64,000 nt of DNA, from assembly GCA_008632985.1 (NCBI GenBank), contig QPGO01000004.1, forward strand, positions 248,001 through 312,000, written 5' to 3'. The DNA comes from Psammoneis japonica. Lineage: Eukaryota. Both the position numbers and the translations under genes were made by a program. The stretch's first letter is position 1, and every line of letters starts with the position of its first letter. The notes under the pieces were generated by a model. That model worked only from the letters and a program-made list of their open reading frames with translations, was not told where the DNA came from and did no database searches. This document shows, piece after piece, positions 1 through 27,999 of this stretch.

Positions 1-3000
1 TCTCATGAATTTTTCATGAGAGTGCGGCACATTGAAAAGAGTGAAATTTTGAATGTGTTCTACAGAAATTGTGGTCAGCAAAGCAGTGCAACAACACAGA
101 ACACAGCAACACAGTTGTTGACTTCATGTGTTGGTTTTTAGGATTTGCTGAGGGCACTGAACAGCCCAAAAAGGACAAGAAGCAATGTTGAACAAAAACC
201 GCAGCTGCGCAGTTTGTGGGTAAGAGCATCTCGTGTTGTTGCCGCTTTGGTCAACAAATGGTGTGAATGATGACATTGTTCATGATGTGTGCTCTCCTCT
301 TGTCGAGTTGATTCCATTTGATGGAATGTTGTGGTGTGAAGACCTGTGGCACGTTGTTTGCGTGGATTTCTGCACTGCGTTCACTGAGGAAAAAGCGGAG
401 TGAAGCCAAAACAGCACATGAATGTGGGTTCACTGCTTGTGTTCACCAACGTCATCACAGAAAGCATGCATGCCAGCATGACATGGTGAACATGAAGGCG
501 GTTGTCTTCACTTGTGATCTGTCACTTTGCTGCAACTGCCTGCCTGCCAGCAACTGCCAACTGCAGTGCACTGAGATGAGAAACACCACCTCCATCGTCA
601 GTGCAAAGAGAGCAGATCCCAGCCCCTGCGATTTTTGTAACTCTCTCACACCGCTCCTCTGCCCCCCAATCCCAGGCCTCTCAAATCCTCAGTCAGTCTC
701 AAGAACTTTCTTGGCATCACCCTCTCCAACCACCACCTCTCTCTTCTTCTTCTTTTGCCAACCCTTCCCTTCCCAACTCTCTCTGCTCCCACTGCCCACC
801 TGTCTGTGCTGTCAGCCTCCCTTTCTCCCCTCACCCCCAGCCCCCTGCCCCTGCTGCTCTCTGTGCATTGTGTTGCCTGCCACCTGCACCAGCCACCCCC
901 ATTTCTTCCCCACCCCAGCTGCCATTGTTGTGTCTGCTTCTGAGTTTCAAAATGACTTGATTTCACACTCAATGCTTGTCAAACTTTCTTGACTCTGCTG
1001 TTTCAGTGCTGGCACACAATCAACTCAGAACTCCCCCTTGCACAGGTCAACAAAACAGCTGATCTTTGAGACAACTGATTGTGCACAAAGTGCACATGTG
1101 AAGTCAGCTGCTCCAATTTTTCTTGAAAAAAAAAGGAACTGGAGCACCCTGGTTTTTCTCTTTAAAAAAGGAGTTGGAGCACCCTGTTTTTTTGTGGCAG
1201 TGTGAACTCATCACGACAGTGTGAAGGACATGCGCAATTGTTGAAAACAGCCAAACAACTTGATGAAAGAAACAAAAAAAGCAGCTCAAAGGTGCATCTG
1301 AAAGGCTGTGTGCAGGTTTCCATTGTTTTCTCATTAAAAATAAGTGCTCCCCAAAATGTTTTGTGTTTGTTGGTTGCTTGTGCCACCCTCCAAGCAACAT
1401 GGAGACAACAGCCGGCACTGCAAAACAACCAGATCTGAGAAAAAATGCAACAGAAATTGGGGGGAAGTCCACAAAGATTCACTTGCACAAAACACACAGT
1501 GAGACAGAAGAAGAGCAGGCTCAGTGCAGTGCCCCAGCACCTCAGCAGCACACGTGTGTCTCAATGTTAGAAAGTTGGGGTTTGACACCGTTTTTGGAGC
1601 ACAGACAGACAATGTTCAAGTGAAAGCAACAACACTGACAATTGTTGGCAACATGGTGAGTTCAGACAACTCAAAATGAAGTTGGGTCTCTTGCTTGCTT
1701 TTTTAGCTTCTGCACTTGGGCAACACAGCAATCAGCACAGAGTGGTGTTTGCAATCCACAGGGTGAGTTTAGGGATCAGCAAAACCAGCACAGATTGGTT
1801 GGCAGTGAGCCATGAAATTCCAACACTCACCTTGGATGAAAACACATGCCCAGGACAACATCAGCAACAGCGCCTTCTCTTCTCATTCTGTGCTCACCCC
1901 CCCACCCCCCACCCCCTCTCCCAGCTGCACAGCCAAAGTTCCAGAAGCAAGCCTCTTGTTCTCAATGGGGATGAGGAGTGCTTTCAAAAAAAAAACACAA
2001 TGTGCTTCAAACCTGCATGTGCAGAAAGACACCATGAGTTGTGTGGGCACCACTGTGCATGTGTGGCCCAGTGCACTTGCCTGTGGCCACATCTGCTTCC
2101 ACATCATTCAAAGATGCAAACATTTTGTGGTGTTTCTTCCATTGCTTTGACAATGGGTTCTGAGCATAACTCGATTGCTCTTGGGGGGGGGGGGGGGTGA
2201 CATTGACATTTTCAGAGTTCTTTTGGGCCACATTGTCTGACAGGGCAACAAAAGCTGGGCAAAAGGGGCAACCAAAGGTTGCTGCTGATCTCTTGTGGAT
2301 GCTGTTTGCTCTCAAGGGTTCAAGGAGCATCATCAACACCAAAGCCCATGTCCTTGCTCACTTGGAAAAGCTGTGATTCAAAGAAAAACATGTGGCTGTA
2401 GTTTGTGATCCATCAGGCCAAAGCATCATTCAAAGAAGGCTGCCATCAGCCAAGAAGCTGAGCACAACAGAGGGGCAGCATGCTGGTCCAAGCCACTCAG
2501 CCTGCATTGGGCTGAGATCATGAAAATGTGGTGTGCAGTGCAAGTGGAAACATGTGCAACAATTGATCAGAAGGCAAAGGGCACACTGCAAGAAAAGGTC
2601 TGCAAGCAAGTTGCCATGGAACCACACAAAATGGAGCTTCCAGTTGCAAGTGGTCCACACACCAAGCAGACTGCAAGATTTTTCAACCAACAGCACAGCA
2701 GCTCTCTGTGGACACGCTGGTGCTTTTCATTGGGAATGAAACCAATTTTTCATTTGTGGCAGAAGAAGCCTGTCCCCAGCTGACAAAGTTCAGATTTGAC
2801 ATGGAGAAGATGCAAAAGAAGAAATGCAGGATTTGTGGTGGTGATGAGGTTGGGGATGTCACTGTTGTGAGTGGCTTTGCAAGCAGGTGTCCCATGTTGG
2901 GAACTGAAAACTTGGCACCCACAGCAGAAAACAGACAGCAGTGGTTTCACAAACAGCCAGTGTGCCCCTTGATTGGTGGTGTTTTGGATGTCTGCTCCTG

Positions 3001-3329
3001 TTGTTTGATTGGCGCGGGGTTCTTGGTGGCAAGTGGAAATGAATTCCCTGCAAATTTAAAGAAAACTGCTGCATTTTCAGGCATGTCTCACATGCCATGA
3101 TTTGAGATGCCTTGGCACATTTGTGGGAAAGCAATTTGTTGCTGCCAAACTGTGATGTCAAGTGCCACAACCTTGTTGATGTCCTTCTGAAGTCAGCTCC
3201 ACCAAAAAATGAGAAAAACAAACAAACCTGGTTTAAAGTGCTGTTGCACCTTTGCCCAGCAACACCAGCACCAGCTGACCCACATCTCCGGCACACCCTG
3301 CCAGGGGTGCGGCAGAAGAAGTCAATGCA

Positions 3330-6300
3330 GACAGTCTGAATCGGCATCTCTCAGTGGAGTCACCCAATGGAAGCAACTGGTGATGGTGCGTGTGCCGCAA
3401 AGCACCAACTTCTTGGCTTCTTTGAGACTTTCTTTGAGTCTGGGCTGGACCATTGAAATCCAATTTTGTGTGTGCATTGTTGAAAAGGCTTTGTGCTCTT
3501 CTGCTGAGCTGAGCAGCACCTCAGTCTTTGGCCAAACATTCCTGGTGCTTGTTGTGCACAGCTGTCAACTCGGCTTGGACTTTTCGTTGCTGAGATGACT
3601 GCCTGGTGTCTGCATCATGTCCGTGTGCATGCTGGTTGTGCTCTTAACACAGATTCCACCATTGTTTCACATGAACAGTCCCACCTGCACTGTCCAATTT
3701 GGTGGCTGTTTGTTCTCTTCTTGGCAATTATGAAGGATGCCTGAGTCATGCAAATGTCCAGACTGGACCACATTCCAAAGAGTGGAGCACCTTCTGCCAA
3801 ACACTTGTTGCCTTCCTGCATCTGATTGAGCTTGCCACAGGGCTCTGCAGCAGCAGTCCAAATCATTGGGATGCACCATCTCATGGTTGAACCATGCTTG
3901 AAGAGAATCCAACAAAAAGTCGCTGAGTGTGGGCATGACATCAACCTGGTCACAACAACAACACACAAGCCTTGCAGGAACTTTCTGCGCCAGGCTTCAT
4001 TGTGCAGACATCGCAGCACATGATCTCTGTCTTCCATTGGATGCTCACAGTGCAGACAATGATGTGGTTGGACAGAATTGTGTCTGTGGACTGTCTTGTT
4101 GGTGGGCAGGAGATCATGAACAAGCTCAAATGTTCCAACTTGTTGCTTGGAATGCCTTTTTATGAGGATGGCATGAGCGCCCCAATCTGTCAGATCAACC
4201 ACACATCCAGATGCCACTGATTGTGCTCAACAATGTGCTCCAGGAGTTGTGGGGCAGCAGCAGTGCACCTGATTTGCCATTTGAAGCTGGGTGTCAAAGT
4301 GCCATCTTGCAGGATCAAATGAGAGTGACAGTGAGGAAGGGGCAGGACCATTGAAGTGTCCAAGTGCAATGTGGCATTGAGTGGAAGTGTGTGGACAGGG
4401 GCATGTCTGTCTTGGTGTCCTTTTGCCCACTTGACTTGCAAAGGAGATGAGAATGTTCTGGATCTGTGGGATTCTTCCATTGCAATGCGAGTGTGCAACA
4501 TCTCATTGACAACATCCCAGTCAGAGGCGAGGGTGTTGGCTCCATGGTGTTGAATGTGAAAAGCTCTGATGTCATCAGATTGGTCCCCGGGAGACAGAGC
4601 AGGAAGGGCAAAAGACATCTGCTTCAGACAAGACACCAGGGCTTTGTCATCACAATGCACGTCCATCTCCTGAAATTCTTTTCTTCGGTGGCATTCCACA
4701 AATTGGCAGATGAAGTGGATGACAGAGAGAATCCCGCATGCTTCTGCACGGCATGACAATGGTTGTCTTCTGAAAACTGGTCCTGCACAAGAATCTGATG
4801 ATGGAGCTCCTGTGAGTGCAATTGTCCATTCAAAAGCAGCTCCTTCATTCATGGAACCATCGCTCCCTGTGGTCAATGTTGAGGAAGAAAAGTTTTGGAT
4901 CAAAGTGTCAGGGGACACGTGAAATTCAAGCTCTGTGAACAACATTGCCTCCCATTGAGGTGAAGATTGCAGCACATCATGGAATGTGTCCAGAAACTGG
5001 GGAGATGGTGAATCCAGCAAAGAAGTGCAAGGCAAGTTGAATGTTCATCTGCTGTCTTCTGTTGCAGAGAGCTCAGCTGGAAATGATTTGTTGGATGGGA
5101 CCGGTGCTGTTTCGAGTTCTGTGACAGAGTTTGTTCTGGTGCCAATCACTTGAAAAATGTTGCACCCTGAGGGAGACTGATGCACAAATGATCCTCTGAG
5201 GGGGGGAAACACGCGGATGCCTGCATGTGCATCTTGGAAGGAGGCACTGACCAGTTGCTGAGTGGTTCTTTCAGTGTCTGTGATGATGGATGGCACAGGG
5301 AAGCACAGAACTTCTTCCATGTGGTCCAAGCTCCAGTTCCTGGTTTGTGCTGCTTGACATTGTTCAGAGCACTTGAACTGCTCTGAAGCAATGGGTCTCC
5401 AGCAACTTTTGTAGCATCCAAGGTCAAGTTGTCAGACAAAGTAATGTCAGACACAGACAGCACCTGCAAGCACAGACAACAGCTGCCAATCCATCTGATT
5501 TTGTGGTGGGAAAAGAGTTGAGATTGAAGGGCAATGTCCACAATGCACACTGGTCATTGTCACGTTGAAGAGGGAGCATGCCGGAATGTGTCAAGCACAC
5601 TTTGCCGTGAATCCTGTGTGAGAATGAATGGACTGAAGTGAACCAGCAGGATTCCATGTGTGGGAGTGCGGTGTTGACATCCCACAAGAAACTCGCTCCT
5701 GTTCCCAAGATCAACTGGATCCAGAAAATTCCATGTGCAAGAGTTTGTGGGGTTGATCTTCTCCCATCTTGAGGTTTGTGATGCCTCTGGAATGTTTCAA
5801 CAACTGCTGCACTTGAGCCACACCTTGTTCCATGTCCAGCAATCAAAATCCTCCGCCACCAAGAGATTGATGTCCAAACAGGATGAGTTGTTTTGCATTT
5901 CTGTTGCACCCACATTTGGTGAATGCAATCTGCGTTGCTTTTTGTTGAACAGCCAACAACTCTTTTGGCAGAAAAGTCGAGTTTGGAAGTGCATGAGTCA
6001 TCAAAGACAGGCGGCATGCATGGCAGCAATGCCATGTTTCTGTCTGATTGATGGGACAGGATCGGAGGAAGAGAGCTGTGATGTCACTTTTGGTCAGGAG
6101 TTTCTTCAAATGGGTCTTCTGGGTGCCAATTGGAGCAACGTAGTGTCCAAGCATTTTATGTGGAACACATGCCAAAAGTTGTTTGCTGGATTGGGAAGTG
6201 GGCCTGTCTGCTGAGAAGATTTTGATGTCAAGGTCGTCATGGCATGGGTGGACACACAGTTTGCCATGCTCAGTGAAGTCCCATTCCACCATGTGGAATG

Positions 6301-6548
6301 AGCACTTCAGCAACTCGAGTTCGTGACCAGCAGCATCAAGCAAATCACACCAAAGTTGGTCATCCTGTTGGAGGGAAAAGGACAAATCAAACGCAGAAGG
6401 TTGGGGACTTGCGCGAAAGTCATTGACCTGTTTAGATGTGTCATTGATGCACCCTCAATTGCAAACTTGGATGAAGAACCTGCCATTGGGGTTTTTGAAG
6501 TGTGCTCCTGTGGCTCTTGCATCAAAGATGTCTCAAAAAGGTGGCTGC
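3330..6548 (-). mobile_element. Ambal-like non-LTR retrotransposon, 3' part (RT C-terminal half, RNase H, C-terminal Zn finger), decayed
   Basis: Minus-strand fragments: GCINDT (from GYVDDT, ~6430-6455), QLWCDLLDAAGHELELLKCSF, RNase H motifs SDGS...SCRAEACG...HCDDKAL...SDWDV...KWAKGHQD, CLHC...EDRDHVLRC, ending RTITSCF near 3365. Many frameshifts. Confidence 0.8.
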
Positions 6549-6735
6549 TGATACAATGCCGAAGGTCAATGATGACAGAGGCATGAAAGACTCCCCAAGC
6601 ACTGGGACTGTGATGACACAAGCACTGGCAGATGAGAAAGTGAGAGGCAGATCTCAGAGAGATCTGCTCGTCCATCTAAATGGTCCGGTCATCATCCGCA
6701 CACAGTCTGTCCATCATGTGACAGATGGGCTGACA
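6549..6735 (-). repeat. 3' LTR of Copia element
   Basis: Aligns without gaps to 12960-13146; preceded on the minus strand by the purine tract GGGGAGGG. Confidence 0.95.
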
Positions 6736-6743
6736 CCCTCCCC
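6736..6743 (-). other. Polypurine tract
   Basis: ccctcccc on plus = GGGGAGGG on minus, abutting the 3' LTR. Confidence 0.8.
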
Positions 6744-9700
6744 TGATCTGTGACATCCCGAAAATAGAAGACAGTGCAGATCAAAACAAAGAATGGGGAT
6801 GATGTAAACAGAGTGATGAGAAGAAGGACACCAAAGGTGTCCAAGCCCAATGCGCATCAAACAACGGGGCAATGTGCAGCAGGGGAGGCCACCGCGGAAA
6901 AAATGTCAACGTCAGTGTCCCATCATGCATCGAGCATGGTGAGCATGGAGCACCCACCCAAGAGCCTTGGCAAGGTCATTGCTGGGGTTGACAATGCCAG
7001 GGACATGTCTGGTGACAATCTTGCCTGCTTCCTTCCATTCTTGAATCGCGAAGAACTGAGTCTCAATGTGGCGCGAACACTCGGTCGGAATCGAGTGATT
7101 GACGATCTTGATGGCTGATTCGTTGTCAACACACAAAGGGGTCAGCTTCATTTGGGAACAACCAAGGTCATGCAGTGCATGGCAAAGGCAAAGAACATGC
7201 TTGGCGGTGGTGCCAGCAGCACAGAATTCTGCTTCTGTAGAACTTGCAGCAGTCACCAACTGTGTCTTGCAACAAAAAGAGATGGCAGTGCCAGCCAACA
7301 TGCAAGCACATCCCGTCATAGAATGTCGGTTACGAAGATCATTTCTGCACGCAGCATCAAGGAAGGCGACAAGTTGATGGTCACACTCGGGAGCAGGGAA
7401 TGATGGGAGGGATGGATCGGGACTCAAGCGTTCATGCGGATGGGCAGGGAGGCTCGGGTCGCGTTCAGATTTCTTGGAGTTCAATTCCCAATGCTTGGTG
7501 CATTGAAGACACTTGCGTGCACCTTTGAGTGCATCACAGTGTGCTGCCGCAGGGCAAGTGGAGAACTTGGACAGGGTGGTGATGGCACAGCCAATGTTGA
7601 GTCGACAGACAACATGTGTGCATGCAATGGCTCACCAAGTGGGGCACAGCATCCAAAACCAGCAGCTTGTTGCAGCTCCGCATGTTCCGGTGTACCTTCA
7701 GCAGGCCCAATGTCAGTGCAAAGGTCACGAATGGAATCCACCGGGATTGGAGTCGCCTTGAAGTCATCAAGCAGTTCCTCATCACTTGGTGCAGACCAAC
7801 CGTGTGAGAGGCAAACACGGTCAATGCAATTGTGGACAGCAGTGCCAATCGAGTCATCACACTGATGAACATCCACGCCATTGAATTCCTCCAGGAGGCC
7901 AAGATGCTTGAAAGGTGGGGCAGTTTCCGAGTCCAATTGAAGGGCTTTGCCAATCCTAGATCGTCTTGGCAATGGACTCCTTGGGGCAAGCAATGGCAAA
8001 GTCATCAACCTGTCGAAGGAGCAAAATTTTTTGTCCGTCAAATGCAGCAGAGTGGACACACTTGTCGTGAGCAGTGTTCCGAAATAAAAGATTCACATCA
8101 GACAAGATGCCATCAATGTGATTCTCCCAGAGCATGCCGGCTTCTGGGTGTCCTTGGAGAGCATGTTGCATGGGAAGCACCACACTCCTGTCCAGCTCCT
8201 TTCCAAAGCAAGACTTGCACCAAGCAGCATGTGCATCGTCAACAGCAACATAGACAGGATGTGACGGGCGGGGAGAATGGGCACAGGCATCGCGGGCATC
8301 ACTGCCATGTGCCGGACAACCCACTGTAGCTGCCAGGGCAAAGAACATCCGCTGGTGTAACTGCTGGAAATGCTTGACAGCATTGTCATGGGTGAAGACT
8401 GGTTGATGATCAATTGACACAACATGCGCGCCTTTGATCTTGTTGCATGTCGCCTTCAAGTTCAAGAAGAGACAAGCAGCAGGGGAACCACGTTTAATGT
8501 CTGAGACGAAAACACATTGGCACAGATCATCCACAGCCAAAGAGAAGCCACAAGTGGAATCCGTGAAAGGCCCTTTCATGGTGCGTGTGATGGTCTTGGC
8601 AAAAGGGTTACCATGAAAGTGAAATCTCATCCACAGCAGTCTCTTCAGTGTCAGCAGGGAGGGCAGCACCAGCCTGAGTGCATTGCAAATGAACAACATT
8701 TGGGGGGACAGAGTCATGGGATAAATCATTCATCCCCTCATCATGCCGGATGTGCTTGGCCAGCTTTGCACGTGATGTCTCGGTGTCGCACCACAAAATG
8801 TTCTTGGTGGCATCTGGAAGATGTCCCAAGAAAATTCCTTTGCGTGACATGGTCCGGAATTTTGCTGGACGGTGATTCGAAGCACGCACCCAAACGCGAC
8901 AACCAAACATGCGGAAGTTCCGAAAATCATCCTTCCAACAAGTGGCAAGTGCAATCGGAGCAGCAGTCTGCCCCCGGGATGGTGTGGCATTCTTGATCCG
9001 AATAAAATGATGAAAAGCACAGGGCCAAAACTTGATCCGCACTGACAAGCATTGCCCGAATGGCATTGGCAATGGTCAAATGACTCCGTTCAACTGGGCC
9101 ACTCTGATTTGAAGCGTCTTTCCCAGTGGGACGAGTTGCACAATGAAAGTCATCCTTGAAGAGTCGCCGAACCACCGGGTTGTTGTGCAACTCACCTCCT
9201 TGATCCAGAAAAACACATTTGTCAGGACATTTCGGCAAGTGATCCTCCAGAAAGTGGCAAATCCAATTCAAAGGGGTGGCCTTTGAGACACAAGTCGCAC
9301 CATGGAGGCGCTTTGTTGTGTGGTCATAAACAGTGATCCAACATGTCTCTCCACTCAACCCAACACAGTCCTTGGTGTGCTCGGTGTTCTTGGAGCAGAG
9401 GCCAGAGAAAGAAAAGTCTGCTGTGAGACCTTGGCAGGGTTGGGTGGCAGTCAAGGTGGCATCAGGTCCAGCGGGTTCCTTCTTCTGTTTAGCCCAGACA
9501 CAAGTGGGGCAAGTGTCAAGTCAAGGGAGGATGCACCATGTGCAAACTTTGGAATGCCATCAACATGTTTGTGAGCATGGCAAAGACAGTGATCACTGGG
9601 GTGCCCAAGACGTTGATGCCATAAAAGGCGTTCCATGTTGGCCTTGAGGGATTGGATGGGAGTGTTCTTCTCAGTGTGCTGCTCAAACGGAGTGTCTTGA

Positions 9701-12700
9701 CATGCTCAGGGGATTAACTTCCTTTGCATGCGGAGAGCATCATTTTGGCGTGCACGACATGTTTCAATCATGTGGGCCGAGACCGCTTCACATTCATCTG
9801 CAAAGGAGGGGTCGCTTGTCTTGAGGCGCTCGATTGATGCATCCAGCTCATCATGGGATTCTGGGAGGATGAGTGGGTGAGTGTGACACTTGCCATTGAT
9901 CAGTTTCCCATGAAAATGACATCCTGACTCTTGCACAAACAATGCCGTGCAACAAACTTGCAGGTGCCAAGATCATGGAACTTGAGCACACAATCAATGT
10001 TGCAATCCATGCAACAGGCGCCATTTTGGCAGAGCAGCAATCGCTCATCAACCAAGGTGGATTGGAACTGTGGGTGGTGACATGCACAAATCTCAACACA
10101 GCCACAGGAGTTCTCCGCAGGCATGCAAAGGCATCCAAAGCTGATTGGGACAGCTTCATGTCCAAGAGCTGGATTGACAGCAAGCGGGCACGGGGCGGAA
10201 GGAGCAAATGCCTGGTGTCGATGCAGGAGATCATGATCTCCAGTGCAGGCAATGTTGGCACCAGTGTCAAGTTGAGCACAGCGCTCATTTGGTGCAAACT
10301 TGACAGCATTGACAGCACAGGCAGTGCGGAGTGGATCTGGTGGATCCAACTCATCATCGTGAGGTGAGTCAATCAGGGCAATGCTTGCAGAATTCGCTGA
10401 GGTGAAACCATCCTCAACAGCAATGTCGTCACAGGTGAGATCAACAAACTCAGCAAAAAAATCATTTTCCTCTGAATCTTCCCTCCCCTGTTCCAAAGAG
10501 TCCGGAACAGGATCAACACCCAATGTGCCATCAGGGAGAATGGGATTGTCATCAGGCAACTTGGTGGTGTCAGGAGAGACCTTCGAGTCGGGGGCACAGT
10601 CTACATCAGTCGTCGAAGAAAGAGGCAGTGCAGCGGTAGATGATGAGACGGTCAGTCCCTCTTTCACAGTCATCCCGCTGACATTGGTCTTGTCTCGGTG
10701 GGCAGAAAATGGGCTGCGTCGGAGATCCGAAACTGGCTGCAATGGCCCGATTGAAAATCTGGAGACTGGACACCAGAACCAGATGGAGAATCAGATTGTC
10801 CTTGATGAGGCGGCAACAAACCTTGTGGTCCTTGAAATTCAGAGGCACGCATGGCCGCTTCTTGCTTCAAGAATTGACAAAAACGCATGTGGAAGCCCTT
10901 GATGTGTGGATTGTTGTTCAAGACAGGACACTCATGGAACAAGTGTTGTCAGAACAAACAAGGCATGGTTTCTTGGAGGCCTCTGTGGGAGTGACCTTGA
11001 GTTTGTGTGCCGAAGCCGAGTGGACATGATGGAGAAGACGGTCTTAATCTGCAGAAGGCACTTTAAGGTCATTCAATTCACCACAGAGGGAGTCAAAGGC
11101 ATCCTGGGGGAGTTGTTGGTGCTGGCAGCTTCAGGTGACTCGTCAGCATCCTCTGCAATGGGAGGGACATCCGGAACAGTCAAGGAATTGACATCGGCAG
11201 TTGTGCAATGCGCATCTACAGGGTTTCGATCCCATGTGCGGCATGGATTGCAAGGACTCGCATGAGTTGCAAGAGATGGACCATCCAACTGATGAAGGAA
11301 GTCAGACAGAGTCTCAACAATCTGTGCATCCGTGTGCTTCTTGAGCACAGCAGGAGACTTCTTTTCATCCCCAGCAGCACAGATGAGAACTTGGAGCACC
11401 CAGTGTTCTTGACAAAAATGGTCATCTCTCGTGAGTCATCCAACGTAGAGTCCGCATCAAAGACACAAGCATGCAGCTGTAGAAAATCCTTGAAACACAA
11501 GTGACAGTCCGTCAATGACAGATTTCCTTGAGTGGGGTGGGAATCTACCAATCCAGCAGCCTCGTGATCAAAAGCTGGATGGTTCTCGTAGACAATCTGT
11601 TTGAGAGCCTTGCAGCCATTGCCATGGCATGAGGCAACAATCCGATGACACTTGCTGTTCTTGGGGAACACATCAGACTTGGAAAGGATCTTGTGAAAGG
11701 AACTTTGAGCTTCTTTACAATGAACACACATTCGTTGGGGCAAGTCATTGTCTTTGCCGTCACCAATCTCAAAACCCTTCTCACCACCATGATCCTTGGT
11801 GAAGCACCACAAAGGATGCACGTAGCATCCCGAGTCGAATGAGTGACTTGGAAGTTTTGGTGCCATGCACACATCCCAGCGGGAGAGTCATCATGGCAGA
11901 TTGGAGGTTCCCTGAACAGCATCTTCTGGTCAGGGGTCAAGCTCATGACAAACAGGGCACCATCATTGAGAATGATGTGATCAGACCCATCAACACAGAG
12001 TGGCAGAATCCATGGTCACAATGGACAAGAGAGCTCTTCAGGGTGACGGCACCACATTCTTTGTGGTCGTAGCATGCACGAACATCGGGAGGCAGGGTGT
12101 TGGGATTGAAGAGACATTTGGATGCTGTGGAAGTTGCAGGAGTTCCAGAGGTCTTGCCAGAGGTGGCAGAAGGCAGAGCATTGCTCGACGCAAACTTGTC
12201 AAGGGCAGTGATTAAGTCATCCACACCAACAGTTGCAGGTCCTGAACTGGTCGTAGATGAGGGTGCAGGCTGTGGGTTCTGCGGGTGGGGCGTGAAAGAG
12301 AACTCCTTCCAATCCTGATAATTCCACATCATGTTGGGGCCAACACAAATGTTTTGTGTAGAGATGACAATGTGTGTGACTTGATCGTGGTTCCGGAGAT
12401 TGGTCTTGATGATCAATGAGAGAGCTGTGGGCATCATGCGGATCGCACAAGGCCTGGTGGAGTCTGTGGTGCAGGACGCAGCTTGATCCACAATCATCTT
12501 GACAGGCTGCATGTCCATGGGATGAACTGTGCAAGGTGGGAACGCCGTGTTGACGATGTGATCTTGAAATGGGTCAACAAAATCTTTCTTCGATTGAGCA
12601 TGTTCTGGATCATCAAAGAATGGGTCCAGATCAAATGTTGAATCCGCACACATCTTGTTCAAACATGTGTGGAGATGAGGTGTTGTTGTGTGTTCTTGAA

Positions 12701-12947
12701 ATTCACAATGGATCTCTGCAATGGATGTCGGAGCAGCCTTTGCAAGGTCGGGAGATGCCATGGTTGCACTTGGTGAGAGCATTTTTGGTCATGCACACGT
12801 GGAAATCTGGTGTGTTTCTATGATCATGAAAAATGCCGGGAAAGCGAGAAAAAAATTGTTGGAACAGACAACGAGGCTTGCTCGGTCGGCTCACAAAACA
12901 AATGAATTGAGACAGAAAGCTTGGCGCAGAGTTCTGTGGCACAGCAC

Positions 12948-12959
12948 AAGGCCACAACC
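12948..12959 (-). other. Primer binding site (initiator tRNA-Met fragment type), mutated
   Basis: Minus strand reads GGTTGTGGCC directly after the 5' LTR; resembles the Copia PBS GGTTATGGGCCC with TA->TG. Confidence 0.6.
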
Positions 12960-13146
12960 TGACAGAATGCCAAAGGTCAACAATGACAGAGGTGTGAAAG
13001 ACTCCCCAAGCACTGGGACTGTGACAACACGAGTGCCAACAGATGAGAAAGTGAGAGGCAGATCTCAGAGAGATCTGCTCGTCCATCTAAATGGTCCAGT
13101 CATCATCTGCACACAGTCTGTCCATCACACAATGGATGGGCTGACA
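12960..13146 (-). repeat. 5' LTR of Copia element
   Basis: 187-bp direct repeat of 6549-6735, followed by TSD GCTGC. Confidence 0.95.
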
Positions 13147-14265
13147 GCTGCGTGAAGTGCTCCAATGCCATGGGGAATTCCCACTTCCTTGACCGGTGCC
13201 ACAAAGGGGTTGTTCTTCTGAATGAGAGCAACTTCGCTGATCCAATCCCAACAAGGTCCAAAGCCAACACCAAGCATGGTGTGGGGCAGCCATGTCATTT
13301 AACTTCAACCACATGAGAGTCCATGCCATCACTTTGGGAACACAGTCCAACAATTGCAGGAATGTTTCTGTCAGCAACAGGAGGTGCGGTTGTCATTGCT
13401 CATTGGCAGCATCTTGCAAGAAGCTCTCAACATTTCTAACATCAAGTTCTCAAGAAACACTGGAGTCTGGGCTGACAAAAGGAGTGGCATCTGTAAATGC
13501 CAGGATTGTGCATGTGATGGTTCTCCATGTGCTGAGCCAATTCTTGCCATTTGACACTCGTGACGATTTGAAAATCTGCCTCGCAGATGTGTGTGACTCA
13601 CAGCCGGTGGATTTTGTTGTCACCTGGTTCTTTGAATGTCATCAAGTTGACAATGTCTTTCCAATGGTCATGTGAATGGCCCACTTCAAAGTGCAGCTAA
13701 TTAAGTTGAGGCAAATCGCAAACAAAGTTTGCTGAACTTGATCTGGGTGTGCCCTCTTTGAGGTCGGATTGGCTTGGGCATCTTGTTCTTTAGCATGAGA
13801 ATGAGGAGCATGCAATGCTTTCCAGCATCCAAGATGCAAACCCAATTTCAGTGAGGTGGAGGTGGATTTGACCACATCTTTAATTTGGAGAGAAAGGCAG
13901 TGGATGAAAGATGGCTCCGCACTGTGGGTGGTGCTTGTCTGCGAAGATGCTGCATGAGCAAAGAAGTTGCAAGATTCAACTGACCGGTCTCATGCTCCCC
14001 ATCTAGAATGAGCTCTGCAACAATGGCATTGCCTTTGCAACCCAGGTCAACTGACAAAGGAAGAGCTGTTGGTGGAGCACCTTTGGCTTGGCCAAAATGA
14101 TGTTGATTTGTTGCTTGCAGTGCTACAGCCACATCTTCTGGGGCATTGACTGTCATCCAATTTCACATGTCTTGGGATTCTCATTTGGGTTTGCAGGCAC
14201 TTGAATTGTCTTTACGCTAGAAGCAATCCCCTTTCATCTTGCAGGCATTGATCTTCCTGAAGACT
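13147..14265 (-). mobile_element. Ambal-like LINE, 5' part (RT N-terminal half), split from the 3' part by the Copia insertion
   Basis: QVPANPNENPKTCENWMTV, NQHHFGQAKGAP, and RT motif PLCGTGQGSGNSP next to the TSD; RT continues beyond the Copia at 6548. Confidence 0.8.
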
Positions 14266-14493
14266 CCACCAAAAAATGAGAGGAACAAGCAGCACTTGAG
14301 TGCCAACATGGCAAAGACAGCAGTTGAAGGAATTGCATTTGAGCCAGCAAAGACTCACCCAGGTGGAACAAATGAGAGCACCTTTCCAGTGCTCCTCCAG
14401 GTTTGCCTCTGACATGCTGCATCAAATGTGACAGGTGCTGCACTGCTTGTTTGGTTGACAGAGCCAGCACAATTCTTGCTGATGAGACTGCAC

Positions 14494-17487: not shown

Positions 17488-20379
17488 TCGTAGGGGAATA
17501 CGTCGCTGTTGCACCTTGTCAGACACATCCTGTTTCCTGTTTGTAAAAAGCAATGAAGTCTCTCTGAGGCGTTGAAGCTTGACGAGCGTTTTTTGCCGTC
17601 ATACCGGTACTCGTGATTAAAACATTTACCCTGGTATCGGGATTCAAACTTAGCGAATGTGGCAAACAGACAGACAGACGGCGTGACGTGGAAATCGAAT
17701 GTTCAAGCGAAGCTGAACGATCATCTCGAACAGTGGTGGCAGACAAGAGCACACAACAATTCTAAGTAGAACGACTTGTATGACCCGGAATGACAATTAT
17801 GACGTGCTCCGGTGTGGCAATGTGTAATAGATCAGTTTATCAGACCCAAGCTTTGCCTGCTGAGTGCCATGGCGGTTCCATGGGGGATGGCGGATGGCCG
17901 ATGGCGGCTGGGGTGGCCACTTGCAGCAGTCGATGGAGACAAAAGGGATGATCATTTGTGTTGATTTAATCACATGTTCAGCTGCAATTGCAGACATCAC
18001 CAAACCACAAGCAATCTTGCCTCAGAGGAGGGACAGATCCTTGGGAGCCCATGTTTTTCTGCCTGGGACAGCAACCAGAACAAATGCTCCAACTTTCGGA
18101 TTTCGAAGATTGCCCCGAGCCCAATGCACTGGAGTGCACCAATCCCTTTTGCAAAGTGATTGCTGCTGCCCAGAAATGCTGTGAGACAATGAGAGCTGCA
18201 AGTGTTCTGTTGAATGTGACAGAAGATGATGATTTGAGGATGGCCTTGCAGCGCAAGATTGAGGTGCCAGTGGACACAGCTTTGTCAGGCTTGCTGGAGC
18301 TGTGTGAGCCGCATTGCTTGGAGAATGTCATGCGGCCCACAGTTGCTTGAAAGATGTCTTGACTCAGCTCAATTTCCAGCACACTCTCCAAAATCACTTG
18401 AAGAGTTGCACCTGTGGCAGCAAAGTTTGATTTGGCAGAGGAGGCTGGCTGGCAATGACACTGCCACAGCACTTGTGACTTTTGGCAAAAATGGTGCAGC
18501 TTTTCTCCTGTCTGCTGCCAAAGTCCTTCCCCAAGCCACCAGCTGCTGTTAATTTTGCCAATTGCTCCAGGGCCAGTGGCAGTGAACAACTCATGAAGTG
18601 CTGGCGATGTGCCACTGAGTGTGCTGCCTTTTTAAATTTGCAAATGTCAGGGGCCCAAATCAATGAATCCTCATGTTCGCAGATGGCCAGACATTGGTCT
18701 GCCAAAACATGTGTGAGTGTGAGCATGTCAATTTGTTCATGACCAAACAAGTCAGATTTACAATGAATCACAGTCATTTGTGATGAATGAGTGTGATTTG
18801 GGAACAAATGAATGTCCAGCACCTCCAATGAATGTCTGTGGTTGTGGATCAAGGGTGTGCAAACCAACAAATTTGTTGCATTGCAACAAGTGGACTCCAG
18901 CATGACACTCCATTTGATGACTTTTGACAACTGACTGACAATGGATTGGGTGACTGGCATCCCAACTGGCCATTTTGCAGTGCACCCTTCCAATTCACTT
19001 GCCCCAATCAGCACCCTGGAATTCAGTTTTTCAATTTTGATTTACCACACAATGTCATTTGCAACAATGTGAGTGCTGCTTTTGTGTGTCACATGCTGGC
19101 CTGGCACCAACTCCCAGTTCAAATGTCTTGGTGCAGTTCACCATGTGTTCACCCTTGTCCCCCGACTCATCGTTGTCTTCCTCCACTTTTTCTCATTGTG
19201 CCCCACTGCAATCTTCCTGCACAAATCCTCCCATTGACCAAGTGATCCACTTGCAATGTCTTGCTTGTTTGATCTCCCTCTCCAGTTTCTCAAAGAATGT
19301 GTTTGCCCTCAGCAACCATCCTTTGCACTTCCTGGGCATCTTTCATCATGTCCTGGGTGCACCTTCTTCTGCTCCATTCCTGGAGTTCCCTGCCATGAAG
19401 TGCCAGGTGTCTCAAGCACTTTCTCTTCTTAGCACCACATTGCCTGTTGGGCAGGTTCTTGTCACTCTCTGGCTTGTTCATGACCTCCGTCAAAACGGAC
19501 AATTGCTCCTGTGTTGTTTGCTTTATTTTCACCTTCTTGATGCATTCATCACAGCTCTCCAGGGACTTCTTCTGCATGTCCTTGAACTCATTCACCATTT
19601 CCTTGGCCACACCTTGCTCTGTGGGCTCTTGAGGGTCTTTTTCCAAAATGGTGGATGAGCTTGATCCATTTTTATCCCCCAGTTTGGCAACAGTGATGTC
19701 TGGCATCATCGACTCACACAAGTCTCCCCTCCCCCCCGGTTGGCTTTCCTTCTTGGTCACTGAGCTCCACATTGCAGTCTGACATCAAATTGCTGTCCTT
19801 GTTGTTGCTCTTGTGCTCTGTGTGCCATGCAACAAAATTGTTCTTCAGGAGCATGTGGGCAAATGCCTGGGCACATGACATGCCCAACCTTGCCAGCCGG
19901 CCCCCTGATGATGTTGGCGGGGAACAGTTGTCTGTTCCACTTGGCTTGCAGCTTCACATTGGCTGAGGAAGCTTCTCTTGAGCTGATCACACTGTGTGAC
20001 AATTCTGGCGCAACTGGAGGATTTTACGATTTGCTGCTCACTCCACTCTGATTTCTCTGCAAGAAAAAGATGTTTGGTGCATCCAAGGCTCTCCAGCACA
20101 AACAGTTGCAAAAAGCCTCTGCAGTCTCTGAAAGAAAAAAGTTTGATGCAGCCAAGGCTCTGCAGCACAAACAGTTCCTAAAAAGCCTCCGCATGAAGGT
20201 TTGCATGCCGAAGCCAGACACACGCATGTCATTTGTGGGTGCCAAGTTACCTGTTTCTGAATGCAGGACATGCCAAGGGACTTGCTTGCCCACTCCCTTT
20301 TTGATGATCATCACAATCTCAATGTCAGCCAATCAATGCACGAACGGTGCCAAAAAATGTTCCTGCAGATGACTGTGAC

Positions 20380-22636
20380 CAGAGAAATGGTTTGCAACAA
20401 ATGATGCTCTGACATGTGCGATGATCTCCCCAAAGATTTTGATCCAGAGAAGAACCTCCTTCTTCCAATGGGCTTGCACCCAGACCAGACAGGAGCTGAT
20501 GTGTGCCAATGACATCCACTTGAACCCTGGTTGTTCTGCATCCTCATTGTGAAGAGGAGTGCTTGTGAACACTCTTGCTCCTGGCATCATTTGGGTTTCA
20601 TGCCAAGCACTGACAAAGGCAGTTCGTCCACTTGCACCAACAAAAACGGCAACTCCATTGATGATGACTCAGCACCATGTGATTCGTCCACCAACATGCA
20701 GGCATGCCATGACATGCTCTTGTTTTTGTTGGAGGACTTGAAGCATCTTCAGAAGCACCCACCCAAGATGATGGCAAGTTTGGGTGGTTGATGTTGGCTC
20801 ATGTGCCTTCTTCTTGTGCAAGGTCCAGCAATTTTTGGTGACCAGAAATCACAGGACTGCACATGTGGTCAGAAGGCAAACAATGGGGGTGGTGCCGGTT
20901 GGTTTCACTGACTGTGCATGTGTTCATTGACAAACACTTCCAACACATTCCTTCCCACAAAAAAAATGGACTGTCTTGCACTCCAATGAATGTGAAAACA
21001 TTGTCATGCTTCATCATGATGGCCCTTGGCTGTCATGGTGGTGCCTCCGCCAAGGAAAATGCCAGCAACAGACGTGAATGGAAGATTTCTTGAAATGCCA
21101 GCAGAAGCCAGCCACAGCCCTGCTGGCCAGACCGCACACAATGCACCCTTGAGAAATGCCTTTGATGGCATTGGTTTTGGGAGCAACCCATGGGTGTGTG
21201 CACTGCCACTGCTGACAAAATCACCTGCACTCTTGGGAGGCCAGAGGTGGGGAGAATGCAGCTGCCATTGCGCATCATGGTTTGACACCAAAGGAAAAAG
21301 AAAATTTCAAAAAAGAGTTTGTGGCAGCAGTGGGGTCCACTTGGTCAAGCACATTTGGGAACTGTCCAAAAGGCTGTTTGAGCTCTGGTTTCACCAGAAT
21401 GACCCTCATGACCCCCACGCAGAAAAGATGGGAACCTTGTTTTGCCCAACTGTGGCAGTGCAATTCAGAGGCACCCATGAGATTGTGGAAAATGCTTGCC
21501 AATGACAAGCAAAGAAATGCACCACCTTTCCATCAGCTTCTTAGATTGGGTTGTCACAAAAAAGGACAAACAGAGTGCTGCAACTGATGGCAGCCAATTG
21601 GAGAACACTGCCTCTGGGAAAAAGCAGTCCCATCAAACAGCATCCAATTGGCATGGAAAGAAAAGGAAAAGACTGTCTAACATGTTCGCTGCCAGCACTC
21701 CCAAGGAAGCTGTTCCAAAAAATGACCAAGCATTGCCACCAAGTGCCTTTCCTTTCAGGAAAGATTCATGTTGCACCGCAGACTACGACACCAATGGTGC
21801 ACTTGACCAAAAACCTTCTGTGATCCAATTTGTCATCAAGGACCTCAAGCTGCATGGATTTGGGTTCTTGTTGCAAGATGACTTTGATGACTTCCAGATG
21901 GACCAGCTGTTTGTTGAATCGTGGAAGATTTTGAAGGCCATCAATGGCAGGCAACAAGCCATCTCATGCCCCGCCCACAAATGCATTGTTGAATCCCTTG
22001 CATGCCCCATTCTGCAGGACAGGTGCCAAGGACTGCTGGACAAAGAGGTCAAGACCAACATTGAAAACTGTGTTGACAGCAGGTTGAGAAAGACCGTTGC
22101 AAGCAAGAAGGTTGATTGGCCCACATCCGAATCTCCCAACGTTGTGGAAGACCTCAACAATCCATGTCAGTTTTCACATTCAATGCAGAATTGTGTTGAG
22201 AAGCATTGTTGCAAGAAACCCATTGCAAAGGGCAGTGGGTGTGCTGGCTTGACACTGTCCAAAATGTCTGCCTTTTCTTTGTTCCTTGAGTGCATTCTTT
22301 GTCATCATGCACATTGTCACCATTCCCATCTGCTTCCCAAGGACATGCCAGCTTGACAACAAAGCCCCAGCTTTTGGAACAAAGAGAGTTGTGTCACACA
22401 TGGACACCACAATTTGTCATGGCAACTCTGCTGTTGACAATGACACTGGGAAAAATTGTGCACAGCTGCACACACTGTTCAACCGGATGTTCATGGGAGA
22501 GCCAATGCAAGTGCACACATCAACAGGTGAGAGACTTCTGAAAAGAAAAGCCAAAAAAAGTCAAAGACAGCCCAGAAGCATGGAGAGGAAACCTTCACAT
22601 GTCAAACTTGCAAAAGGGTGTGCGAGCCAACAATCC
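20380..22636 (+). mobile_element. Plavaka-type DNA transposon transposase, 5' part, decayed
   Basis: Frameshifted motifs LLLPMGLHPDQTG.D...PLEPWLF...WHHLGFMP, ACHDML..LLEDL, IFGDQKSQDCTCG, LRNAFDGIGFGSNP, TSTGERLLK..AKK match the Plavaka transposase pattern with Y->H/C and R->H/C. Confidence 0.7.
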
Positions 22637-22868
22637 TTTGTTGGTCCTCAGAGTCAGAGTGATGAGTGCATGTGGCATGCAAAATTTGAACAGAAGGACA
22701 ACCAGACGGATTGTCAATTCTTTTGGCTGCATGTGTGATGTTTGGCAAATTCAATTTCACATGCCAATGGTCAACAGTCATTTCCCAATGACTTTGGAAG
22801 TTGTTGATGACACTGTGATGATCATCATTGTGTCACAAGCTCTGTCAAGTTGTCTTAGTCTTTTAAAA
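22637..22868 (+). repeat. Split direct repeat A1
   Basis: Matches 28000-28208 (tttgttggtcctcagagtcagag...agtcttttaaaa) with one ~25-bp indel. Confidence 0.9.
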
Positions 22869-27997: not shown

Positions 27998-27999
27998 TG

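Follow-up and report, generated by a model that had tools for sequence, protein, structure and literature searches.

YpR-restricted divergence between the LTRs of a degenerate copia element suggests post-integration hypermutation at TpA and CpG in diatom repeats

The window, meaning the whole stretch of 64,000 nucleotides of Psammoneis japonica DNA that was analysed, contains a copia-like element bounded by two direct LTRs and lying in the first of three blocks depleted in CpG and TpA. The features on which the analysis rests are as follows.

1..14400, no strand: CpG- and TpA-depleted block holding the element (from composition; right border between about 14,220 and 14,510)
6544..6548, no strand: target-site duplication GCTGC, left copy (direct reading; identical to 13147-13151)
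6549..6735, minus strand: left LTR, the 3' LTR in element orientation (187 bp, TG...CA ends; from alignment)
6736..6744, minus strand: putative polypurine tract AGGGGAGGG (minus strand), abutting the 3' LTR (from position and purine run)
6915..10355, minus strand: degenerate copia pol with gag-pre-integrase, integrase with SH3-like domain, RVT_2 reverse transcriptase and C-terminal part (from tblastn and homologue domain order)
8608..9075, minus strand: stop-to-stop ORF with SH3_retrovirus (PF25597; Pfam E = 1.7e-8, 34.7 bits, cut-off 27)
12960..13146, minus strand: right LTR, the 5' LTR in element orientation (187 bp, TG...CA ends; from alignment)
13147..13151, no strand: target-site duplication GCTGC, right copy (direct reading)
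17950..33980, no strand: second depleted block, with sharp borders (from composition and repeat alignments)
55210..64000, no strand: third depleted block, with the strongest depletion (CG o/e 0.02-0.19, TA o/e 0-0.10; from composition)

The limits of the LTRs, 187 bp each and gap-free, were set by MAFFT and global alignment, and a repeat search of the element region returned one direct pair (6548-6735 / 12959-13146, 88% identical). Since the polypurine tract at 6736-6744 abuts the 3' LTR, the element is oriented on the minus strand. Pfam matched none of the 11 plus-strand ORFs of the element, and the coding strand is therefore also minus; among all 26 element ORFs the only match was SH3_retrovirus. 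Matches in tblastn searches with all retrieved copia proteins were confined to 6915-10355, a region 35-60% identical to database copia polyproteins. Two homologues, P0005 and P0016, are colinear with the minus strand from 10355 down to 6915, and both carry gag_pre-integrs, then SH3_retrovirus, then RVT_2. The hallmarks of copia are present, namely paired direct LTRs with TG...CA ends, a flanking short duplication and, as seen from the homologue alignment, an integrase upstream of the RVT_2 reverse transcriptase. The reading frame is broken: at least five frame changes separate the seven HSPs of P0005 across 6915-10355, an unmatched gap lies near 8391-8408, homologue residues 593-777 find no match, and Tyr is missing at conserved columns (the ORF at 8608-9075 on the minus strand has no Tyr in 155 residues). 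Judged by these features, the element is a dead, degenerate Ty1/copia LTR retrotransposon on the minus strand of the diatom nuclear genome.

Global alignment of the two LTRs revealed 23 differences over 187 bp, of which 22 are transitions and one is a transversion. The alignment holds 46 YpR columns: 14 TG/TG, 17 CA/CA, one CG/CG and one TA/TA are unchanged between the copies, while eight CA/TG (16 nt), three CA/CG, one CG/TG and one CA/TA differ. The eight CA/TG swaps lie at LTR positions 22-23, 34-35, 66-67, 75-76, 78-79, 169-170, 171-172 and 174-175. The original prediction, made by hand alignment, had placed 21 of the 23 differences in YpR dinucleotides and had divided them into eight TG/CA double swaps, four CG against CA/TG, one TA against CA and two others; our alignment returned exactly this tally, class by class. 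The YpR columns make up 92 of the 187 LTR positions but hold 21 of the 23 differences (binomial p = 2.4e-5), and the ten adjacent pairs of differences are a number reached in only 3 of 100,000 random placements. Both differences outside YpR (LTR position 6, C/G, and position 80, G/A) touch a changed YpR site. Recoded as purines and pyrimidines, the two LTRs reach 99.5% identity over 188 bases, as against 87.8% in plain letters. The left LTR (6549-6735) retains three CG and one TA that are gone from the right LTR, and at 13039 in the right LTR the A is derived, with G in 34 contigs of run X1. The 5-bp duplication is intact, all but one of the 23 differences are transitions and all but two fall in YpR columns; the changes therefore arose after insertion and were targeted to YpR, as had been proposed.

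The same dinucleotides are depleted well beyond the element. In the depleted blocks the CG o/e is 0.02-0.54 and the TA o/e 0-0.14, with TG and CA at 1.5-2.2, while the gene-bearing blocks show CG o/e values of about 0.7-1.5 and TA values of 0.4-1.0. Between normal and depleted DNA the CG frequency falls from 0.052 to 0.009 and that of TA from 0.045 to 0.003, and TG+CA rises from 0.144 to 0.225. All YpR dinucleotides taken together stay unchanged in frequency (normal DNA 0.240, depleted DNA 0.237, element 0.243). Block borders are sharp to within 100-300 bp, and the adjoining blocks, which carry ABC transporter, PPR, otubain, menin and CpeT genes, are normal in both TA and CG. The depletion is limited to repeat blocks and leaves the neighbouring genes unaffected, as in the process known from Bigelowiella natans, to which we return below. 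The named relatives of the menin ORF are all diatoms, at 39-43% identity (ncbi rows) and up to 50% (eukprot rows), which rules against B. natans as the source of the DNA; its best matches overall reach 55%. Two further transition-only repeat pairs lie in the second depleted block (22637-22868 / 28000-28208 and 27916-27999 / 28300-28383); in one repeat pair of the window, pair C, 5 of 17 transitions fall outside YpR. The third block contains an assembly gap at 56262-56564. In the remaining depleted blocks none of 81 ORFs scored above the Pfam cut-off, the two sub-threshold scores being zf-RVT (E = 0.0036) and ZSWIM4-8_C (E = 0.002). Within block 1..14400 depletion is stronger in the flanks than in the element itself, which suggests that the element inserted later, into repeats that are older and already decayed; a paralogous run X1 contig joins 6532 to 13145, with the element absent.

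The ancestral state of the changed sites was read from 506 consensus columns of copia homologues that are only 35-60% identical. None of the 25 Tyr (TAY) columns is kept: 11 now encode Cys (TGY), ten His (CAY), one Trp, one Phe and two Ser. Of 33 Arg columns 16 are kept, all of them CGN, and 12 have changed to TGY, CAY or CAA (eight Cys, three His, one Gln). Control columns are largely kept (His 20/21, Gln 12/12, Lys 14/15, Phe 25/28, Asp 23/26). In all, 134 columns have changed; 58 need transversions and are taken to reflect ordinary family divergence, and 76 are explicable by transitions alone, with 21 TA>TG (plus one compound), 13 TA>CA, 14 CG>CA, 11 CG>TG and 16 other. TA>TG or TA>CA thus accounts for 34 (plus one compound) of these 76 residue changes. 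Cycling of TG/CA through CG as a source of swaps in the element is out, since no transition swap was seen in 55 His, Gln, Cys and Trp codons, which contain CA or TG. Processive single-strand bursts likewise find no support in the element (runs test, 16 runs against 17.1 expected).

Further family copies agree. Contigs of run X1 read TA where the element has TG (8394, 13 contigs) and where it has CA (11761, 16 contigs), and they read CG at seven sites where the element has TG or CA. These sites are among 40 listed of 2083 variant places, with only one (13039) in an LTR; the sample is biased against hypermutable sites, and run X1 is possibly the same data as the window assembly, in which case the agreement is not independent. 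The spectrum is not purely one of CG and TA loss, because this sample also holds 13 well-supported private transitions outside YpR and three that create CpG (TG>CG at 9233 and 12872, CA>CG at 7517). A metagenome scan with a YR-degenerate 57-base pattern of the LTR core gave no matches. Taken at the level of protein homologues and related copies, the comparison shows that the element ancestrally held both TA and CG, and that TA loss is complete in the element and faster than CG loss.

The same signature was then sought among copia elements elsewhere. Among the 150 copia homologues listed, 12 have no Tyr, and His or Cys now occupies 25 of 33 consensus-Tyr columns in 18 homologues that are low in Tyr. 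At 13 Tyr positions of an intact relative (P0274, 91% identical), homologue P0018 has eight Cys, one His, one Phe and three Tyr kept. The metagenome element L073 provides a second LTR pair, with 12 transitions and one transversion; 12 of the 13 differences lie at YpR, including five TA/CA, two TA/TG, one CG/TG and two swaps. Its Tyr columns are kept at 7 of 26, with 13 now Cys and two His, while the undepleted loci L025 and L010 have Tyr at 21 of 26. The Tyr>Cys/His signature was found in separate ENA, JGI and Logan assemblies, and these comparisons show it in unrelated copia elements. Because L073 and P0018 lose TA with little CG loss, the TA and CG arms may be separate processes.

The original prediction had explained the double swaps as an ancestral TA or CG resolved on opposite strands in the two copies. 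Both ancestral states stand for the coding part, while the state of the LTR swap sites is reached indirectly. Since TA decays faster than CG, most of the eight probably began as TA. Three observations lead to this origin: the site count fits CG plus TA (a maximum-likelihood estimate of 21 decaying sites with p = 0.79 per copy, where normal window DNA predicts 9.6 CG and 8.4 TA per 186 dinucleotides), CG-only decay mismatches the CG decay of the element (Fisher p = 4.7e-4), and the LTR pair of L073 keeps TA in one copy at seven sites. The competing account is methyl-CpG decay alone, with every swap site ancestrally CG and the lack of TA inherited by the family. CG>TG/CA change is clearly ongoing (four half-decayed LTR CG sites, 12 Arg CGN codons and seven polarised CG losses), and a model with CG as the sole ancestral state accounts for the LTR data on their own, at about 20 sites and p about 0.89. 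That model requires about 20 CpG in 187 bp, against 9.6 in normal window DNA, and an 85% loss of LTR CG, yet 16 of 28 CGN-type Arg codons survive in the element, the mismatch given by the Fisher test. Furthermore, other family copies retain TA at 8394 and 11761, L073 differs at seven TA-containing sites against one CG site, and a functional copia element cannot lack Tyr, which makes up 2.4-4.5% of the homologues. The proposal that all swap sites were CG, which the original prediction had set against itself, fails on the codons: of 25 Tyr columns none is kept and 21 now read TGY or CAY, and of 33 Arg columns 16 are kept while 12 have turned into Cys, His or Gln. For the coding part the CG-only account is, on these homologue alignments, already contradicted, and we consider it highly improbable overall.

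A sequencing or assembly artefact would leave the DNA itself with CG and TA, modified bases of heterochromatic repeats (5mC at CpG, modified T or A at TpA) having been systematically miscalled. Both depleted dinucleotides are palindromic and could bear symmetric modifications, and the sequencing platform of the window and of run X1 is not on record. Against this, run X1 contigs with a word depth of about 60-77 reproduce the depleted flanks, with two other letters in 353 bases and one other letter plus one gap in 439 bases. The choice between TG and CA varies among family copies and between the LTRs, which miscalling of a single modification would not produce; nor would an artefact sit easily with at least five frame changes in the coding region, or with a Tyr>Cys/His signature that recurs in separate ENA, JGI and Logan assemblies. 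We regard miscalling as scarcely credible, and take the changes to be real.

Editing before integration is a further candidate, in which RNA or cDNA would be hyper-edited by an ADAR- or APOBEC-like enzyme and the LTR differences would stem from recombination or gene conversion. The two LTRs of a new insertion derive from a single template. Editing cannot, therefore, make them differ, and the matching 5-bp target duplication speaks against inter-element recombination. A strand bias of the kind expected from editing is seen in P0018 (eight Tyr>Cys against one Tyr>His) and in L073 (13 Cys against two His), but in the element Cys and His are balanced at 11 to 10, and the runs test gave no strand clustering. 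Moreover, the depletion extends into non-copia flanks and stops sharply at gene borders. ADARs do favour U before the edited A, according to the B. natans preprint (bioRxiv 10.64898/2026.01.13.699255). On balance such editing is very unlikely here, and a process acting on integrated DNA is preferred.

Outside YpR the LTRs differ at 2 of 187 positions (1.1%), or at 2 of 95 non-YpR positions (2.1%). The K2P distance is 0.140 over all sites and 0.021 over non-YpR sites, and all-site LTR dating is inflated about 6.7-fold, in line with the suspicion that dates from such LTRs would be too old. Methyl-CpG decay is the familiar reason for excluding CpG sites in LTR dating. Relative to background, TA loss would be faster by at least tens to hundreds of times, a ratio resting on two background events in 95 positions, and CG loss is estimated at roughly 50 times the non-YpR rate. 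The element had been called young and the process fast. The speed is upheld in relative terms, with complete TA loss set against 1.1-2.1% non-YpR divergence, but the copy is not brand new, because its coding region has at least five frame changes.

We consider it likely that these patterns record a post-integration, transition-only hypermutation of diatom repeat blocks at the self-complementary dinucleotides TpA and CpG. The LTRs were identical at integration. Each copy would then lose TpA, to TpG or CpA depending on the strand hit, and CpG would be lost likewise but more slowly, while original TG and CA would be stable. Hits on opposite strands in the two LTRs would leave a TG/CA double difference, and a hit in one LTR only would leave CG or TA facing TG or CA. 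By analogy, the CpG arm would be deamination of 5-methylcytosine in methylated transposons, and the TpA arm a process of the same kind as the TpA-specific hypermutation of integrated foreign DNA in B. natans. The TpA arm would prefer RTAY over YTAR contexts, and the contexts of surviving TA are symmetric, RTAY being lost and TTAA surviving. The most likely chemistry would be deamination, by a putative enzyme, of adenine preceded by T in DNA. The same process could run on a different TpA chemistry, in which a modified thymine (5-hydroxymethyluracil or base-J-like) pairs with G and yields T>C. As TpA is palindromic, T>C and A>G on the opposite strand look alike in sequence, and the symmetric survival contexts suit this version too. 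In dinoflagellates, hydroxymethyluracil is concentrated at TpA and TpC. The sole published proposal for a TpA process is a putative ADAT2-like adenine deaminase (bioRxiv 10.64898/2026.01.13.699255); we hold the thymine version to be unlikely, though a serious possibility. More speculatively, and in our view rather doubtful, silenced repeats in diatoms may be recognised by an editor dedicated to genome defence, which would hypermutate TpA (preferring RTAY) and CpG to TG/CA with one machinery, for instance a dual A/C DNA deaminase recruited to heterochromatin. Such an editor would be shared with chlorarachniophytes and old within SAR, would do its work while an insertion is still young, and would be widespread enough to show up in environmental assemblies.

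To date there is a single description of TpA-directed hypermutation in invading DNA, a 2026 preprint that concerns one chlorarachniophyte (bioRxiv 10.64898/2026.01.13.699255); in the open-access and bioRxiv literature we found no diatom report of TpA loss in transposons. A signature at saturation in diatom retrotransposons and in unrelated environmental copia elements suggests a widespread eukaryotic genome defence, one that would oppose the usual GC-to-AT bias. The LTR pair serves as a clean natural experiment: it places the changes on both strands of DNA already integrated in the chromosome, at a rate probably far above background. Diatoms, some of which can be manipulated genetically, therefore allow a direct search for the enzyme and a direct test of the link with methylation. 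For annotation, LTR dating in such genomes will be inflated several-fold unless CpG- and TpA-derived sites are masked, and homology-based transposon annotation fails in such DNA (Pfam matched 1 of 26 element ORFs and 0 of 81 elsewhere above cut-off), although repeats are recoverable by purine/pyrimidine recoding.

Known systems share some of these features. Methyl-CpG decay in vertebrates and plants also turns CG into TG or CA on either strand, faster than other changes, and the rate of the CG arm is estimated to lie within its range; unlike that decay, the process seen here removes TpA and turns Tyr codons into Cys or His. APOBEC3 and ADAR hyper-editing resembles it in its clustered transitions, its dinucleotide preference and the inactivation of retroelement copies. 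Such editing hits RNA or cDNA, is strand-specific and leaves both LTRs identical, whereas here the LTRs differ, the strands are equally hit (11 Cys, 10 His) and the changes extend to flanks that are not retroelement sequence.

Fungal RIP (repeat-induced point mutation), a genome defence, similarly riddles repeats with transitions, breaks reading frames, ends near repeat borders and inflates repeat age. As described in the RIPCAL paper (PMC2621366), RIP makes C>T changes alone, chiefly at CpA, and hence enriches TpA; here TpA is erased (o/e 0-0.14), half of the changes are A:T>G:C, and none of the 55 CA/TG codons changed by transition, contrary to the C>T change at CpN and the TpA enrichment expected of RIP. 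Diatoms do have DNMT4 enzymes related to fungal RID, and their transposons are CG-methylated, according to PMC9998398.

The closest parallel is B. natans, where Mettrop et al. describe TpA-only A:T>G:C hypermutation of integrated viral DNA at about 1000-fold above background, and report that reverse transcriptase and DDE domains are enriched among the coding sequences low in TpA (bioRxiv 10.64898/2026.01.13.699255). The host there is a chlorarachniophyte, a rhizarian, while ours is a diatom, of the Stramenopiles, and the targets there are giant-virus and virophage inserts instead of LTR retrotransposons and unidentifiable repeats. The reported TA o/e of the B. natans NCLDV insert is 0.45, against a near-saturated 0-0.14 here; CpG is lost in the same blocks here, while no raised GC>AT rate is reported there; and rates there come from mutation-accumulation lines, not from an LTR pair. 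The two systems share A:T>G:C transitions at TpA to TpG or CpA according to strand, their localisation to foreign or mobile DNA in an otherwise normal genome, and a lasting depletion of TpA with a gain of CpA and TpG.

The only strong direct repeat pair found in the window lies at 6548-6735 and 12959-13146, and corresponds to the two long terminal repeats (LTRs) of a single element, which is bordered by the following features:

6549-6735 and 12960-13146: LTRs, 187 bp each, starting with TG and ending with CA (gap-free alignment)
6544-6548 and 13147-13151: flanking duplication GCTGC, 5 bases (read from the sequence)
6736-6744, minus strand: purine run AGGGGAGGG, abutting the LTR at 6549-6735 in the position expected of a polypurine tract

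The original prediction counted 23 differences between the LTRs, 21 of them in YpR dinucleotides (pyrimidine then purine: TG, CA, CG or TA) and including eight double swaps (TG in one LTR, CA in the other), and the alignment reproduces this tally exactly, with 22 transitions and one transversion. Of the 46 columns that are YpR in both LTRs, 14 TG/TG, 17 CA/CA, one CG/CG and one TA/TA are unchanged, while the changed columns comprise eight of TG versus CA, three of CA versus CG, one of CG versus TG and one of CA versus TA. The two non-YpR differences, at LTR positions 6 and 80, both adjoin changed YpR sites. YpR columns make up 92 of the 187 LTR positions, yet hold 21 of the 23 differences (binomial p = 2.4e-5), and the differences form ten adjacent pairs, a count met in 3 of 100,000 random placements; this concentration is not due to chance. 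Indeed, the LTRs are 99.5% identical when coded as purines and pyrimidines (188 bases), versus 87.8% in plain letters.

None of the 11 plus-strand ORFs of the element has a Pfam match, and only one of the 15 on the minus strand does (8608-9075; SH3_retrovirus, E = 1.7e-8), this being the C-terminal domain of copia-type integrases; with one match among 26 ORFs, Pfam under-detects here. A HMMER search with this ORF returned 541 proteins with E no higher than 1e-3; the top 150 include polyproteins of 800-2457 residues that match the minus strand colinearly between 10355 and 6915 (35-60% identity), and two homologues display the copia domain order (gag_pre-integrs, SH3_retrovirus, RVT_2). Aligned to the minus strand, the copia homologue P0005 yields seven HSPs with at least five frame changes between them, its residues 593-777 having no counterpart in the element. 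Because of the domain match, the colinear homologues, the frame changes and the purine run, the element is identified as a dead Ty1/copia retrotransposon on the minus strand, and its frame changes show that this copy is not brand new.

The ancestral state of the changed sites was assessed in the coding part, using 506 columns with at least five homologues aligned and 60% agreeing; these homologues have a normal Tyr content (2.4-4.5%). Not one of the 25 consensus Tyr columns (TAY; two of them overlap at an HSP junction) is kept: 11 are now Cys (TGY), 10 His (CAY), one Trp, one Phe and two Ser. Consensus Arg is kept in 16 of 33 columns, all CGN, the others having become Cys (8), His (3), Gln (1) or other residues (5). 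Retention of other residues is high: His 20/21, Gln 12/12, Lys 14/15, Phe 25/28 and Asp 23/26. Among 134 changed columns, 58 require a transversion and reflect ordinary family divergence, while the 76 explicable by transitions alone divide into 21 TA>TG (plus one compound), 13 TA>CA, 14 CG>CA, 11 CG>TG and 16 others. The 55 conserved codons for His, Gln, Cys and Trp, all containing CA or TG, show no swap and no change to CG; original TG and CA are therefore stable, and the swaps have to derive from CG or TA.

Further copies of the family are carried by contigs of sequencing run X1, which is possibly the source of the window and hence no independent proof of its sequence. At the best-supported 40 of 2083 variant places, one of them in an LTR, these copies read TA at 8394 (TG here; 13 contigs) and at 11761 (CA here; 16 contigs), and CG at seven places where the element has TG or CA. 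The same 40 places, which favor sites of agreement among the other copies and so under-sample hypermutable sites, include 13 private transitions of this copy outside YpR and three private transitions that create CpG (7517, 9233 and 12872). Scanning metagenomes for the LTR core pattern gave no matches. The predicted ancestral presence of TA as well as CG is borne out for the coding part of the element; for the eight LTR swap sites we infer it.

The LTR counts (two intact sites, five half-decayed, eight swaps, plus unseen same-way double hits) are best fitted, under a single-rate model, by 21 decaying sites with p = 0.79 per copy, and the normal DNA of the window leads one to expect 9.6 CG and 8.4 TA per 186 dinucleotides. 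Had all LTR swap sites begun as CG, some 20 CpG per 187 bp would be needed, against the 9.6 predicted, and 85% of CG would have been lost, against the 16 of 28 CGN-type Arg codons that survive inside the element (CG retention of 6/40 versus 16/28; Fisher p = 4.7e-4). As TA is lost almost completely and CG to about 43%, former TA should account for most of the double-hit LTR sites. The one TA intact in both LTRs stands in CTAA, a resistant context.

The composition of the window as a whole is bimodal, with gene blocks separated by sharp borders (resolved to 100-300 bp) from blocks depleted in CG and TA:

1 to ~14.4 kb: depleted block (dinucleotide composition)
~17.95-33.98 kb: depleted block (dinucleotide composition)
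~55.2-64 kb: depleted block (dinucleotide composition)

Observed/expected ratios in the depleted blocks are 0.02-0.54 for CG, 0-0.14 for TA and 1.5-2.2 for TG and CA, versus ~0.7-1.5 for CG and 0.4-1.0 for TA in the gene blocks. The summed YpR frequency is constant (normal DNA 0.240, depleted 0.237, element 0.243), while from normal to depleted DNA CG drops from 0.052 to 0.009 and TA from 0.045 to 0.003, with TG+CA increasing from 0.144 to 0.225. These frequencies are those predicted for conversion of CG and TA to TG and CA by transitions, both contributing about equally. Repeat chromosomal DNA gains TpA and CpG transitions after integration, on both strands; in the element, the Cys and His replacements of Tyr are balanced and do not cluster by strand. 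As TAA and TAG are nearly absent, each of the six frames of the depleted blocks is rich in long spurious ORFs (outside the element, 81 reach 110 residues or more), and here gene callers would over-predict and homology searches under-detect.

Within the first block, the element retains more CG (0.030) than its flanks, and TA is nearly gone (0.006). Contigs of run X1 match the flanks at 6339-6532 and 13145-13362 with ~83% identity, and a paralogous contig links 6532 to 13145, the element being absent. Since both flanks are bridged in this way, the insertion site lies in an older repeat with paralogous empty copies, and this, together with the CG retention, gives the element the look of a more recent insertion within older repeats that are fully decayed. 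The flanking repeat is possibly a non-LTR retroelement, a sub-threshold zf-RVT match at 3618-4226 (minus strand; E = 0.0036, 18.4 bits versus a cut-off of 27.5) being the only hint.

The second block holds two more repeat pairs, whose differences are nearly all transitions and which are 98-100% identical when purine/pyrimidine-coded. The 84-bp pair 27916-27999/28300-28383 (82% identity in plain letters) differs by 17 transitions and no transversions, with six swaps; five of the 17 lie outside YpR and, like the non-YpR transitions and CpG gains of the element, cut against pure CG/TA loss. The pair 22637-22868/28000-28208 shows 76% identity in plain letters and ~98% when coded, and 28000-28208 keeps CG at five sites where its partner reads TG or CA, the reverse occurring once. 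The 84-bp pair brackets the copy at 28000-28208, an arrangement that may represent a tandem or nested LTR structure. In the third block, a perfect 29-base inverted repeat (56227-56255/56565-56593) surrounds a 303-N assembly gap (56262-56564), probably a scaffolding or assembly effect.

In the gene blocks, long and largely unbroken ORFs code for an ABC transporter ATPase, a PPR protein, an otubain, a menin and a CpeT-family protein. Top relatives of the menin reach 55% identity, and the named ones are all diatoms (NCBI, 39-43%, including Skeletonema, Stephanodiscus, Thalassiosira, Discostella, Nitzschia, Cylindrotheca and Epithemia; EukProt, 35-50%, among them Amphora, Cyclotella and Pseudo-nitzschia), so the organism is a diatom without a close relative among named proteins, and Bigelowiella is rejected as the source. 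The ABC transporter ATPase-domain ORF (14413-15786, plus strand) begins within a depleted block, the depletion border (~14,220-14,510) falling in its first ~100 bases, and no membrane domain was found upstream; the repeat block may have cut the gene short, or decay may have affected its 5' part.

Changes at TpA and CpG occur at rates far above those at other sites: TA is completely lost and CG to ~43%, against a non-YpR LTR divergence of 2/95. The claim of a young element and a fast process accordingly holds in its second half, and only in part in its first, given the frame changes. LTR dating is inflated, as anticipated: the K2P distance is 0.140 over all sites versus 0.021 over non-YpR sites, overstating the age ~6.7-fold, and LTR clocks here need masking of both CpG- and TpA-derived sites. 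Relative to gene DNA, which stands in for the repeats' starting composition and makes the values indicative only, TA survival is 0.39 in TTAA, 0.21-0.23 in TTAG/CTAA and 0-0.008 in ATAT, GTAT, ATAC and GTAC, which suggests RTAY as the favored target and partial protection of YTAR. CG survives at 0.35-0.52 when flanked by G/C (SCGS) and at ~0.15 when flanked by A/T (WCGW).

Similar traces occur outside the window. Tyr is absent from 12 of the best 150 copia homologues (130-251 residues), with Cys and His raised, and those looked up come from ENA assemblies. In 18 low-Tyr homologues, His or Cys occupies 25 of 33 consensus-Tyr columns, and consensus Arg is kept in 72 of 119, with 35 now Cys, Trp, Gln or His. 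The homologue P0018 shares 91% identity with the intact P0274 (same 90% cluster); of the latter's 13 Tyr, eight became Cys, one His and one Phe, three are kept, and Arg is essentially unchanged. Across 80 metagenome loci with P0274 relatives, found with Tyr-containing peptides and hence biased against decayed copies, TA observed/expected ranges from 0.24 to 0.91. Low-TA loci keep few Tyr (L073 7/26, L058 2/21, L057 5/20), showing Cys and His instead, versus 21/26 in each of the normal-TA loci L025 and L010. The 14 loci that reach 5000 bases yielded one LTR pair (L073, 352-552/8461-8661; L072, 99.97% identical, represents the same element), with 12 transitions and one transversion: five TA/CA, two TA/TG, one CG/TG and two swaps. 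This pair represents an earlier stage than that of the window, at which TA sites change after insertion and the majority of CG sites have yet to decay; the TA arm is thus independent of the CG arm. Former Tyr columns of L073 (4001-8128) now read 13 Cys versus 2 His, a bias shared by P0018 (8 versus 1) and differing from the window copy (11 versus 10); one strand, or an RNA/cDNA stage, could have been struck first in some copies.

The CG arm, with an excess of roughly 50-fold, would be 5-methylcytosine deamination, which could reach that value; CG methylation is established in diatom transposons (PMC9998398). The TA arm would be a process of the kind seen in the TpA hypermutation of Bigelowiella natans. 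There, a preprint describes A:T>G:C changes at TpA only, ~1000-fold over background, in integrated giant-virus and virophage DNA, with low-TpA genes enriched in reverse-transcriptase and DDE domains, and its authors suggest that an ADAT2-like adenine deaminase is responsible (bioRxiv 10.64898/2026.01.13.699255). Adenine deamination is taken as the most likely chemistry at TpA, with about even odds; a modified thymine mispairing with G, which would leave the same sequence pattern, is less likely. RIP was considered and rejected as the mutation process: it enriches TpA, unlike the pattern in the window, where TpA is lost. Searches of an open-access and bioRxiv collection turned up no account of diatom transposons losing TpA, and among these papers only the B. 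natans preprint describes a TpA process. The pattern reported here resembles that process joined with methyl-CpG decay, and goes beyond it in its saturation, its retrotransposon targets, the concurrent CpG loss, the flanking-base preference and the traces in environmental assemblies.
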